The notes under the pieces were generated by a model that did not search any database, had not been told where the DNA came from, and saw only the letters and a list, made by a program, of their open reading frames with translations. The position numbers and the translations under genes were made by a program. A stretch of 64,000 bases of DNA, taken from positions 34,112 through 98,111 of the forward strand of contig JBFMAK010000004.1 in assembly GCA_040755695.1 (NCBI GenBank), read 5' to 3'. The stretch comes from Candidatus Iainarchaeum sp. (GTDB lineage: Archaea > Iainarchaeota > Iainarchaeia > Iainarchaeales > 1-14-0-10-31-34). The stretch's first letter is position 1. Every line of letters begins with the position of its first letter. Shown here piece by piece: positions 9,982 through 62,770 of the stretch.

Positions 9982-10060
9982 TCTTTTTCCTTTTTGGGCA
10001 ACTTTCCCTTTCTTTTTTGGGATAACGTAACACTTTTTTCTTTCGGGAAAGAAAAAAGGG
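9982..10060 (-). repeat. Dispersed repeat family B, copy 3' of tRNA-Ser(TGA)
   Basis: Minus strand: CCC-TTTTTTCTTT-CCCG-AAAGAAAAAAG-TGTTACGTTATCCC-AAAAAAGAAAG-GGAAAGTTGCCC-AAAAAGGAAAAAG; same architecture as 10112-10184, 26778-26875 and 62629-62770. Confidence 0.75.
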
Positions 10061-10065
10061 TCCGA

Positions 10066-10222
10066 CGCGGAGGACGAGATTCGAACTCGCGTGAGCTTTT
10101 GCTCGCCAGCTTTCCTGCCGCCATTTTTTTCTCTTTGGGGCAACTTACCACTTTCTCTTTTTTCTAAAAAGAGAAAGGGGCAGGCTCAAGGCTGGTGCGT
10201 TGGACCACTCCGCCACCTCCGC
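10066..10222 (-). tRNA. tRNA-Ser(TGA) with a 73-nt intron at 37/38 (10112-10184)
   Basis: Acceptor GCGGAGG/CCTCCGC; CCAGC-CT-TGA-G|intron|A-GCTGG; canonical BHB (CTTG/CAGG central helix, two 3-nt bulges, CTGCC/GGCGG intron helix); long variable arm. Confidence 0.95.
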
Positions 10223-26777: not shown

Positions 26778-26875
26778 CTGCCCCTTCTTTTCTTTAGAAA
26801 AGAAAAGAAGCGGTAAGTTGCCGGAAGAAAAGAAAGTAAAAAGTGCAAGGAGCCCAAAAAAAGAAAAAAGAAGAT
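26778..26875 (+). repeat. Dispersed repeat family B, copy 3' of tRNA-Ser(CGA)
   Basis: CTGCCC-CTTCTTTTCTTT-AGA-AAAGAAAAGAAG-CGGTAAGTTGCC..., 36/45 identical without gaps to the tRNA-Ser(TGA) intron. Confidence 0.88.
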
Positions 26876-27847: not shown

Positions 27848-27971
27848 GCGGCTATAGTCTAGTGGTTAGGATTCGAGCTTCCCAAATCAGAACCTAACGG
27901 TTCCGATACCTCCCTTAAGAGGTTGTGATTGGAGTGAGCTCGCTACCCGGGTTCGAATCCCGGTAGCCGCA
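27848..27971 (+). tRNA. tRNA-Gly(CCC) with a 52-nt intron at 37/38 (27885-27936, boundary ambiguous by 1 nt)
   Basis: GCGGCTA/TAGCCGC acceptor; CGAGC-TT-CCC-A|intron|A-GCTCG; central helix TTCC/GGAG with a relaxed BHB; T arm CCGGG-TTCGAAT-CCCGG. Confidence 0.93.
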
Positions 27972-38407: not shown

Positions 38408-38421
38408 TCGAAAACCTCCTG

Positions 38422-38450
38422 CAAAACTTTTGGGAAAAGTTTTATCAAAA
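38422..38450. repeat. Hairpin repeat family D, intergenic copy upstream of rpl1
   Basis: CAAAACTTTT-GGG-AAAAGTTTT-ATCAAAA, similar to the two CAAACTTTT-loop-AAAAGTTTG-ATCAAAA units inside the RNase P RNA. Confidence 0.7.
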
Positions 38451-38568
38451 AAACTCTCCGAGTTAGCAGTAGTAACGGATTAAAATCAAGAAAAATTTAC
38501 ATAATAATTATGGGGCAAGGTTTAAAAAAGAAGGAGTTAAAAAAGAATTCGCAACAACTTAATAATAA

Positions 38569-57562: not shown

Positions 57563-57961
57563 ATGGACTACAAAAAATACAAATTTCATTTGACAATAGG
57601 GCTAATTTTACTTGTTGTAATAATATCGGCTGTTTTTATTTATTATTTGCCAACAAAAGAAAAAGAAGCATGTAACAAACTAGGGATTACTACAATGAGT
57701 ATGCTTCATGTTTCTAAATGCACAGATAATGAGGAAAAAGCTTATGTTAAAGTTGACACGCCTTATTGGACAAGAGAATATTATAATGAATCAGGAAATA
57801 TTATTCTAAAATGCGGTGAAACTTACGATGAGTACAGTTCCGCTGAGTACATGGACCAATGCACAAAATTTGAAAAAGCTCTCACATGCAATAAACGAAT
57901 GTGCTTCAATGAATTTGAATATTACATCAAATATTACTTATATTACTTTTTTAATTTTTGA
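57563..57961 (+). CDS. Small AT-rich exported Cys-containing hypothetical protein
   Basis: N-terminal TM helix; six Cys residues. Confidence 0.6.
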   Translation: MDYKKYKFHLTIGLILLVVIISAVFIYYLPTKEKEACNKLGITTMSMLHVSKCTDNEEKAYVKVDTPYWTREYYNESGNIILKCGETYDEYSSAEYMDQCTKFEKALTCNKRMCFNEFEYYIKYYLYYFFNF

Positions 57962-58539
57962 TGCAGTCAAGTGAGAACATGAAACAATTGTTTCCATCGT
58001 ACGCAAACCCCAATACTTGGCGGACAATTACAGCAGACCAAACCCGCAGGGAAGACTGGAAGCAAATTCGCCAGAAAATTCTTGAGCGTGATGATTATGC
58101 CTGTCAGTATTGCGGCTTCAAATCAGACAAATGGCAAATCGTGCACCACATTAACGGAAACCCAAATAACAATCGCCATTCAAACCTCATGGTTGTCTGC
58201 CAAATGTGCAACCTCATTGAACACGCGGGAATGGGTTGCGTATTGCAGGGTGTTGTTGACTTGTACAAAAAAGCGAAATACAGCCAAAACGAGATTGTCG
58301 CAAAGACTAGGGAACTGCGAGCGTCTGGAAAGACCGATGCTGAAATAATCCGGGAACTTGGCCTTGAGGAAAAAATGGAATTCAGGCAGGATTGGGCTTA
58401 TCTCAAACCACTTTTCGGTTTCGTAACCTCACGAAAGGCGACCGATGAAAAGACAAACATTGCCTTGGCATACCAGTATCAAGCGGCCAGAAATCCGGCC
58501 AGCCAAGGTCAGCAGCAGCGGAGTTTGGGTGAGTTTTAA
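57961..58539 (+). CDS. HNH endonuclease
   Basis: ERDDYACQYCG, VHHINGNPNNN and NLMVVCQMCNLIEH. Confidence 0.87.
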   Translation: MQSSENMKQLFPSYANPNTWRTITADQTRREDWKQIRQKILERDDYACQYCGFKSDKWQIVHHINGNPNNNRHSNLMVVCQMCNLIEHAGMGCVLQGVVDLYKKAKYSQNEIVAKTRELRASGKTDAEIIRELGLEEKMEFRQDWAYLKPLFGFVTSRKATDEKTNIALAYQYQAARNPASQGQQQRSLGEF

Positions 58540-62156: not shown

Positions 62157-62291
62157 CTCCTCTCCTCCTATTAAATTAATTCAATGAATCAATGTAATGC
62201 GCAGATAAAATTAAAAAAAGAGGCATTCGGGAAGGCAAAAAAATTAAAAAAAGCAATTAATTTAAATTCGTTATTCTACATAAAATACTTT

Positions 62292-62631
62292 GGCGGGTAG
62301 GACAAGGCCAGCTGACGGTTCCTTAAGTGGAGCTGAGGAAAGTCCGTCCATCCAAACTTTTTGAAAAAAGTTTGATCAAAACAAACTTTTAAGAAAAGTT
62401 TGATCAAAAAACACTTGAAAAGGTGGCTCTCGGAACAGAAACGAAACCATTCAAGGATTACAATGAATGAAAAAAGAGGTTCTTTGAATATAGTTTCAAG
62501 CTTTGCTTGAAATTTTTCAAAGCTTTGCTTTGAAATAGGATGAAACGGCTGAGAGCAGATGCAAGCCTTCAATGGCGCTCAGGTGAATGCTGGATAAAAA
62601 CAAAAGACGGCTTACTCTGTCCTGCTCCGCC
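62292..62631 (+). ncRNA. rnpB: RNase P RNA
   Basis: P1 GGGTAGGACA/TGTCCTGCTC; P2 CCAGC/GCTGG; conserved GAGGAAAGTCC, ACAGAAA, GATGAAACG, GAATGC and ACAAAAGACGGCTTA; P4 AAGTCCG/CGGCTT. Confidence 0.9.
62353..62409 (+). repeat. Tandem family D hairpins inside the RNase P RNA
   Basis: CAAACTTTT-TGAA-AAAAGTTTG-ATCAAAA followed by CAAACTTTT-AAG-AAAAGTTTG-ATCAAAA. Confidence 0.88.
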
Positions 62632-62770
62632 CTTTTCTTTTAAAAAAAGAAAAGTGCAGGTTGCCCAAAAGAAAAGAAGCGGCAAGTTGCTGGAAGAAAA
62701 GAAAAAAAGCGACAGGCTGTCGGAAAGAAAGAAAATTAACGGGTTGCCTCAAAAGAAAAAAGAAAGGGGT
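62629..62770 (+). repeat. Dispersed repeat family B, expanded copy 3' of the RNase P RNA
   Basis: CTTTTCTTTT-AAA-AAAAGAAAAG hairpin, then four purine-tract/mini-hairpin units (TGCAGGTTGCCC, CGGCAAGTTGCTG, CGACAGGCTGTCG, ACGGGTTGCCT). Confidence 0.8.

Follow-up and report, generated by a model that had tools for sequence, protein, structure and literature searches.

Repeats of the STRR type (short repetitive units in tandem) reportedly occur inside P12 of the RNase P RNA of heterocyst-forming cyanobacteria, as Vioque is said to have described in 1997. To our knowledge, repeat capture in RNase P RNA is known only from this cyanobacterial helix. Among archaeal RNase P RNAs, type M lacks P8, P6, P16 and P17 (PMC2858038), and archaeal tRNA and rRNA genes contain bulge-helix-bulge (BHB) introns that have been proposed to be mobile (PMC4090602, PMC3293823). 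Here we describe an archaeal RNase P RNA gene (rnpB) in a 64,000-nucleotide (nt) stretch of contig JBFMAK010000004.1 (the window, whose coordinates are used throughout), in which a reduced, type-M-like core is accompanied by two pairs of hairpins. Three other reduced rnpB genes, of metagenomic origin (L134, L124 and L126), have neither pair, and each pair recurs at other loci. They are probably palindromic repeats, similar to repetitive extragenic palindromic (REP) sequences or miniature inverted-repeat transposable elements (MITEs), that were inserted at two tolerant peripheral sites of the RNA and retained as expansion helices.

An RNase P RNA gene with two hairpin pairs

The Rfam covariance model RF00373 matched positions 62296-62626 (+) over its full length (model positions 1-288) with 119.9 bits (E = 5.4e-33; gathering score, 84). 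Extending the match by helix P1, which was read from the sequence, gives a gene of 62292-62631, a span identical to that in an earlier prediction based on the letters of the window alone (the original prediction). That prediction had also placed four hairpins in the gene and described its universal core motifs as intact; the hairpin search bore out the former, and the Rfam alignment and an alignment with other rnpB genes (alignment A1) the latter. The gene and its parts are as follows.

62292-62631 (+): rnpB, encoding an archaeal RNase P RNA of reduced, type-M-like core (RF00373 match and P1 read from the sequence)
62292-62303 and 62619-62631 (+): P1, GGCGGGUAGGAC paired with GUCCUGCUCCGCC, with one bulged U (read from the sequence)
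62335-62345 (+): conserved region (CR) I, 5' strand of P4, GAGGAAAGUCC (DNA GAGGAAAGTCC), invariant in alignment A1 (also Rfam alignment)
62349-62352 (+): P5/7, CAUC, bordering insert 1
62353-62409 (+): insert 1, 57 nt, two tandem D units, each a 9-base-pair (bp) A/U-rich hairpin plus ATCAAAA (hairpin search; absent from L134, L124 and L126)
62353-62374 (+): D1, CAAACTTTT-tgaa-AAAAGTTTG, followed by ATCAAAA at 62375-62381
62382-62402 (+): D2, CAAACTTTT-aag-AAAAGTTTG, followed by ATCAAAA at 62403-62409
62412-62425 (+): native P9 hairpin, CACUU-GAAA-AGGUG (Rfam alignment; homologous hairpins in L134, L124 and L126)
62435-62444 (+): CR-II, ACAGAAACGA (Rfam alignment and alignment A1)
62446-62490 (+): native P12, stem UUCAAGG / CUUUGAA around GGAUUACAAUGAAUGAAAAAAGAGGUUC (homology to GGATTACGATGATCAAAACTGAGTTTCC of L124)
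62494-62535 (+): insert 2, 42 nt, hairpins hp1 and hp2, between the 3' strand of P12 and CR-III
62494-62512 (+): hp1, TTTCAAGC-ttt-GCTTGAAA (hairpin search)
62515-62535 (+): hp2, TTTCAAAGC-ttt-GCTTTGAAA (hairpin search)
62539-62548 (+): CR-III, GAUGAAACGG (DNA GATGAAACGG) (Rfam alignment and alignment A1)
62565-62576 (+): P15, a 3-bp hairpin, GCC-UUCAAU-GGC (Rfam alignment)
62585-62590 (+): conserved block GAATGC (RNA GAAUGC) (Rfam alignment and alignment A1)
62600-62615 (+): CR-V, 3' strand of P4, ACAAAAGACGGCUUAC (Rfam alignment and alignment A1)
62609-62615 (+): conserved block GGCTTAC (RNA GGCUUAC) (Rfam alignment and alignment A1)

Perfect hairpins of at least 8 bp occur at about 20 sites in the 64-kb window, and four of these lie inside this 340-nt gene. 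CR-I to CR-V and the P4 pairing are all present and invariant with respect to four other rnpB genes. The P15-P17 region is only 6 nt long, compared with 39 in the RF00373 model, and P6, P16 and P17 are absent. The native architecture is therefore that of a reduced type-M-like RNA, apparently without P8, with a bare P15 hairpin and with a kink-turn (K-turn)-like element in P12, the interior of which resembles a C/D box and may form a K-turn.

Insert 1 lies between P5/7 and P9, the position of P8 in type A RNAs. The helix that Rfam aligned there as P8 was rejected as spurious, since the model builds it from a U-run and an A-run of the D units. We likewise rejected hp1 and hp2 as P12 itself: the native P12, homologous to that of L124 with its box C/D-like, K-turn-type sequence, is at 62446-62490 and the two hairpins lie 3' of it. 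The original prediction had assigned the second pair to the P12 region; its coordinates stand, and the pair falls between the 3' strand of native P12 and CR-III.

Because the arms of D1 and D2 have the same sequence, the D pair is able to fold in either of two ways. It can form two hairpins (-5.5 and -5.0 kcal/mol), as originally drawn, but a single nested helix of ~19 bp with an AUCAAAA loop is more stable (-15.3 kcal/mol) and was preferred both in the isolated segment and in the whole RNA. Substitutions among relatives fit both folds alike. Both pairs are stable if folded alone, and the minimum-free-energy fold of the whole RNA leaves both inserts as local structures (z = -5.3).

Presence and absence in related genes

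A pattern built from the 3' half of rnpB, and hence blind to both inserts, was used to scan metagenome contigs and yielded 44 loci, about eleven of which were rnpB genes. Among these, both pairs are present in L142 (JGI Ga0315289_10000148), which matches the window at 95% identity. In L134, L124 and L126, which have in common with the window the core and an unusual 3' end (ACAAAAGACGGCUUAC or ACAGAAGGCGGCUUAC), both pairs are absent and leave clean gaps in alignment A1. These three genes have only a short A-rich linker from P5/7 to P9 (TGAAATCAAAAAA in L134, close to GATCAAAAAA in the window) and run after P12 directly into GAUGAAACG. Since none of the three has a P8, the D pair is not a modified P8, nor is the P12 pair an old elaboration of P12; what fills the site in the window is a repeat-derived D pair that is not homologous to P8. 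Because three other reduced rnpB genes lack them, both pairs are insertions, and comparison shows both as events that presumably took place at the DNA level. The insertion event appears recent, being common only to relatives that are ~90-95% identical.

L134 (785-1147), L126 (509-914) and L124 (1867-2289) themselves encode strongly reduced RNase P RNAs, without P8 and P16/17. In L134 and L126, P12 has shrunk to a tetraloop hairpin and the distance from CR-II to CR-III is 19-29 nt. RNase P RNAs of type-M-like or smaller size thus seem to exist well outside Methanococcales.

Logan contigs of further close relatives were recovered: X1 (70.5 kb) was assembled from sediment, X4 from groundwater and X3 from the metatranscriptome of an aquifer. 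Together with L142, all of these keep both pairs, each with its own substitutions, and one X2 contig has the P12 pair along with the gene's 3' end. Between the window and L142 there are 17 differences. Changes in the P10/11 block are compensatory (62429-62431 with 62550-62553), and those in P9, P12 and P1 are wobble/Watson-Crick switches: A62421G of L142 gives a U.G pair in P9, and T62483C and A62488G, found in relatives, keep the pairing of P12. As far as sequence comparison can tell, the gene is genuine and constrained. It would take part in pre-tRNA cleavage with POP5, RPP30, RPP21, RPP29 and L7Ae, for which the compensatory changes relative to L142 are indirect evidence. Within the inserts, three of the differences from L142 fall in loops, one in the spacer after D2 and none in the stems; a rough Poisson estimate for no change across ~70 nt of insert stems is ~0.03. 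The X3 substitution A62397G replaces a U-A pair in D2 by U.G.

The X3 metatranscriptome contig (233 nt, 62314-62545) lies wholly inside the gene and has both inserts and no joints; no matching contig was found in two sister metatranscriptome runs. As read from the sequence, the two flanks of each insert cannot pair with one another, so that the exon-exon helix of a BHB motif cannot form. The inserts are therefore probably retained in the RNA.

Recurrence of the hairpin pairs at other loci

A further D-type unit occurs elsewhere in the window.

38422-38450 (+): free D-type unit, CAAAACTTTT-ggg-AAAAGTTTT-ATCAAAA, located 15 nt upstream of the start codon (TTG) of rpl1, a minus-strand gene

This copy has three mismatches, and its closing pair has changed from C-G to A-T in a compensatory manner; no match was found in 100 shuffles. 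In the collinear 70.5-kb X1 contig, which has rnpB aboard, positions 38423-38464 are missing with CGA in their place; the copy is present in X2. On the minus strand (38408-38470), the rpl1-rpl10-rpl12 operon has a GGAGG Shine-Dalgarno sequence and a TTG start, with the D-type hairpin immediately upstream of both, and the rpl1 leader consequently differs between near-identical genomes owing to the presence or absence of the D copy.

Two other X1 contigs, 6088 and 1151 nt long, also bear the P12 pair at their ends, as a single unit of 42-44 nt. The depth of these contigs is ~19, compared with 16.4 for the rnpB contig, and that of collapsed unitigs is 60-110; the total word depth of the unit in X1 is ~305, compared with 16 for its flanks. 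At these other X1 loci the pair is followed by CT/AG hairpins of the same kind as those 3' of rnpB in the window. There is no second copy of the P12 pair in the 64-kb window, and a single one is compatible with a handful of copies per ~megabase genome. A scan of viral sequences for the P12-type hairpin returned one unrelated phage locus only. Assemblies break at the repeats, in X4 at contig ends in D units and also in X1. Each element thus occurs at several unrelated loci (D, two units in rnpB and one near rpl1; hp pair, at least three X1 contigs plus unitigs), which shows both to be dispersed families of REP/MITE-like repeats, gained and lost at other sites.

These results support much of the original prediction and modify the rest. 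It had reported the D copy upstream of rpl1 and held that a repeat element had been absorbed into the ribozyme gene, and both statements are upheld: the pairs are absent from L134, L124 and L126, D occurs elsewhere and its rpl1 copy is variable. Helices shared across the lineage and a D unit repeated nowhere else would have spoken for the opposite; instead, close orthologues share the helices, distant ones are without them and D is repeated. Only one of the pairs had been attributed to a free repeat family, which is correct for D but too narrow, as the P12 pair recurs in X1 and both are dispersed. The proposed origin by two independent tandem duplications fits in that both pairs are tandem; duplication in place is only one possibility, as the P12 pair moves ready-made and a D-D tandem also exists in L079. 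Finally, the description as structural helices is borne out only in the sense that the helices are kept and their stems conserved.

The D unit in other genomes and at tRNA genes

We searched for exact matches to AAACTTTT-N3-5-AAAAGTTTK-ATCAAAA and found at least 138 copies on 120 loci of the GTDB species set (L001-L120). Among the matches listed, archaeal hosts include Methanosarcina, other Methanosarcinales, ANME-1, Methanocellales and Methanobrevibacter, as well as Micrarchaeota, Iainarchaeota, Woesearchaeota, Pacearchaeota, Nanohaloarchaeota and Altiarchaeota; in Methanosarcina isolates the units form tandem arrays. Bacterial hosts among the same matches are GC-rich Clostridia and Cloacimonadota, where D comes after a GC-rich hairpin. 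IMG/VR contributed 168 matches on 110 contigs (L175-L284), mostly giant-virus bins of 17-32% G+C, in which nearly all copies are the variant tAAACTTTTTAGAAAAAAGTTTTATCAAAA. Composition-matched controls in the same collection gave 1 (non-complementary 3' arm) and 4 (permuted tail), compared with 110 for D; these patterns being 25- to 100-fold rarer, both the hairpin and its ATCAAAA tail are specific. Among the matches listed, the ninth (closing) pair covaries, with C-G in 94, A-T in 37 and a mismatch in 4 of 135. L079 has a variant (CAAACCTTT/AAAGGTTTG) in which pairing is maintained, and its D-D tandem has the same GATCAAAAC junction as that in rnpB.

No Rfam family matched D at gathering score across 40 loci, or at E<=5 for one bacterial copy, and literature searches for the sequence returned only unrelated primers and a transposase gene. 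Ends of the IS200/IS605 type (hairpin plus TCAA/TTGAT) were considered and rejected, as no transposase was seen beside the Methanosarcina arrays. As the arms are simple (A4-C-T4, A4-G-T4) and the tail reads like the beginning of a further arm, AT-rich palindromes may have converged on this form, the alternative being the spread of one foldback element.

Among the GTDB matches listed, 17 of 138 D copies lie in a tRNA gene or at most 2 nt away, a space (tRNA gene ±2 nt) that makes up 1.1% of the sequence (binomial P ~3e-13). The hairpins flush with tRNA genes are in DPANN-type loci. Six copies, lying on the strand opposite to the tRNA gene, abut its +1 position, and the G of the stem's closing pair is tRNA G+1 itself (L020, L054, L101, L108, L118 and L022); two begin 1-2 nt past the tRNA 3' end (L006 and L027); and five start 0-3 nt from the 5' end of a canonical intron (L009, L018, L024, L062 and L069). 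In L095 (113-408), a 221-nt tRNA-Glu intron is bounded by inverted D-like hairpins in the manner of terminal inverted repeats. None of the tRNA genes of the 64-kb window has a D unit. The pattern at tRNA edges can mean either that insertion is aimed there or that only RNA-processed segments are safe in compact genomes, and rnpB is the one case seen in which D sits in a part of an RNA that is apparently kept. The T5 tract of D within tRNA introns and rnpB argues against a strong terminator, and, measured from tRNA +1, the hairpin is not where the usual TATA spacing of a promoter would place it.

The intron sequence ATCAGAACCTAACGGTTCCGATACCTCCCTT of the tRNA gene at 27848-27971 (intron part, 27883-27940) recurs almost unchanged in L068 (228-262), a locus of the GTDB archaeal metagenome-assembled genome SMAG_U8205, between two D units and adjoining a tRNA-Cys gene; intron modules are shared across genomes.

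Origin of the inserts

We regard the insertion of REP/MITE-like palindromes, followed by their retention as expansion helices, as the likely explanation. The D hairpin pair would have entered the single-stranded linker between P5/7 and P9, and the 'TTTCAAGC' hairpin pair the base of P12, both at the DNA level and in recent ancestry. They may have survived because they fold by themselves and occupy peripheral sites of the specificity (S) domain where other RNase P RNAs tolerate helices, leaving the catalytic core undisturbed. The inserts would be transcribed and kept as neutral or near-neutral helices, with selection acting mainly to keep the stems self-contained. Several points weigh against this explanation. 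Coverage of the window's own genome ends with the 64 kb, and copy numbers were taken from relatives. No rnpB gene at intermediate distance was recovered, either by the pattern scan or by the synteny route to orthologues, in which long contigs bearing a homologue, 68-80% identical, of the adjacent HemW-like gene all lacked rnpB upstream of it. Among the loci fetched, there was no transposase-like open reading frame (ORF) beside the Methanosarcina arrays, and the 5' flanks of D had no duplicate of the 3' ATCAAAA that would mark a target-site duplication. The occurrence of D in giant-virus bins and bacteria fits a functional signal or convergence equally well. The sole RNA evidence for retention, the X3 contig, has a word depth of 2, at which DNA carry-over is possible, and conservation of the stems could signal a function of the helices instead of neutrality.

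This last point leads to the view that the hairpins are functional modules: they would bind a protein or pair with the palindromic hairpins of the same kind that lie in leaders and introns of pre-tRNAs, and would thereby connect RNase P with its substrates or with some common processing or regulatory factor. The conserved stems and varying loops among relatives would agree with it, as would the D hairpins of DPANN genomes flush with tRNA +1, 3' ends and intron starts, the association of the specific tail with the hairpin (110 versus 4 for the permuted tail) and the mutual complementarity of any two D units. We nevertheless consider it unlikely, given that the window's own tRNA genes are without D, that the rpl1 copy is dispensable in a close relative, that L134, L124 and L126 manage without either insert and that no candidate protein was found. 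A broader version, which strikes us as rather doubtful, is that the D hairpin (CAAACTTTT-loop-AAAAGTTTG-ATCAAAA) is an undescribed foldback element of several domains and giant viruses that resides at cleavage sites of stable RNAs and has also entered the RNase P ribozyme. Its sites would be tRNA +1, tRNA 3' ends and intron 5' splice sites, reached by insertion or by selection, and, all copies being complementary to one another, those within RNase P RNA could act as a natural built-in guide by pairing with precursors that bear D.

The occurrence of D units within tRNA introns of other archaea (7 of 8 in sense orientation, mostly at the 5' splice site) also raises the possibility that the inserts are spliced out as introns, whether by the archaeal splicing endonuclease or by some other activity, leaving a plain type M RNA; without 62353-62409, the P5/7-linker-P9 arrangement would indeed resemble that of L134. 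Such excision is improbable, as GUCCAUC/AACACUUG and GAAUAUAG/AUAGGAUG are not complementary, neither insert has a BHB motif and the X3 contig carries both without joints. Still less credible is an ancestral P8 duplicated in place, combined with an ordinary elaboration of P12 and a chance likeness to sequences elsewhere. The D pair does sit at the P8 position, where Rfam partly aligned it as P8, and arms so simple make convergence conceivable; against this, the reduced relatives are without any P8, the identity extends over at least 24 specified bases to hundreds of copies (the matched controls being far rarer), and the P12 pair is found intact at other loci of a relative's genome. An assembly artefact, by which repeats were misassembled into the rnpB contig, can be practically dismissed: repeats do break the X4 and X1 assemblies at these positions, but the same architecture appears in independent assemblies of different samples (window, L142, X1, X3 and X4), each with its own substitutions. 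Insertion of dispersed repeats with subsequent retention thus remains our preferred account of both pairs.

Flanking sequences and host

Two further features border the gene.

62257-62267 (+): putative promoter, TATA-like box TTAATTTAAAT, ~30 nt before the start of P1 (from the usual archaeal promoter spacing)
62630-62770 (+): 3' flank, a CT/AG hairpin (62630-62656) followed by ~30-nt units of a small GC hairpin and a purine spacer, outside the mature RNA

A depth spike at 62640-62693 in both X1 and X2 indicates that modules of the 3' flank are dispersed as well. Polypyrimidine/polypurine hairpins (for example, CCCTTTTCTTTT-AAA-AAAAGAAAAG) are found directly 3' of rnpB and of two tRNA genes, and one lies inside the 76-nt intron of the tRNA gene at 10066-10222 (-); away from rnpB, these hairpins are at 26784-26810, 10033-10058 and 10151-10177. 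About 4 kb upstream of rnpB, an ORF with an HNH endonuclease domain (Pfam HNH_3/HNH; 57958-58539, +) stands beside uncharacterised ORFs.

The window has a G+C content of 34-42% and its tRNA genes have long introns; partial matches to it came from groundwater, aquifer and sediment metagenomes. A DPANN-type host is likely because the named homologues of the neighbouring HemW-like gene belong to Nanoarchaeota, Pacearchaeota and Diapherotrites. Taken together, the comparisons show the locus to be, to all appearances, the RNase P RNA gene at work in an archaeon that is AT-rich and probably of the DPANN group.

Comparison with known systems

The closest precedent is the STRR-bearing RNase P RNA of cyanobacteria, where a dispersed short genomic repeat inside the gene reportedly also lengthens the peripheral P12 region of the S domain without altering the core. 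The STRR units of these Bacteria are heptamers in tandem that lengthen one existing helix, whereas here the host is archaeal, the inserts are ready-made hairpin pairs of two palindromic families and there are two insertion sites, one of them at the P8 position, with both 'empty' and 'filled' relatives at hand. Repeat capture would thereby be extended from cyanobacterial P12 to Archaea and to the position of P8. Like type M RNAs (Methanococcales, Archaeoglobus), the native core is without P6, P16 and P17, has a simple P15 hairpin and apparently lacks P8; unlike them, it belongs to a host outside Methanococcales and Archaeoglobus (DPANN, judging by neighbour-gene homologues), and its P8 position has been refilled by repeat hairpins. 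Reduced type-M-like RNase P RNAs therefore exist in DPANN-like archaea, and the reduction may be independent of that in the type M lineages.

The hairpin units share with REP sequences and bacterial interspersed mosaic elements (BIMEs), REP doublets forming hairpins (REPINs) and MITE-like repeats (PMC3116915, PMC12306157) their short length, paired or arrayed arrangement, intergenic dispersal, variable presence among close relatives and tendency to break assemblies. They differ in that neither a gene of the REP-associated tyrosine transposase (RAYT)/TnpA type nor a target duplication was seen at the loci fetched, in that units lie inside stable-RNA genes and in that D crosses domains and enters giant-virus bins, whereas classical REPs are usually lineage-specific. 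This wide distribution, together with the position at tRNA-processing sites, is an unexplained pattern that deserves its own study. Archaeal BHB introns offer a partial parallel, since D units lie in tRNA introns of other archaea, including the 221-nt intron of L095, but the rnpB inserts are without a BHB motif and one RNA contig retains them.

If our explanation is correct, dispersed repeats can be taken up and enlarge even a ribozyme that is essential, and the locus is a datable natural case of such a ribozyme gaining helices, with filled and empty versions available for comparison. Whether structured RNAs grow as inserted hairpins accrete could thus be tested directly. In this respect the inserts resemble the expansion segments of rRNA, which are also extra helices at tolerant surface positions of an essential RNA with an unchanged core; here, however, the source of the helices can be identified among dispersed genomic repeats, and the event appears recent.

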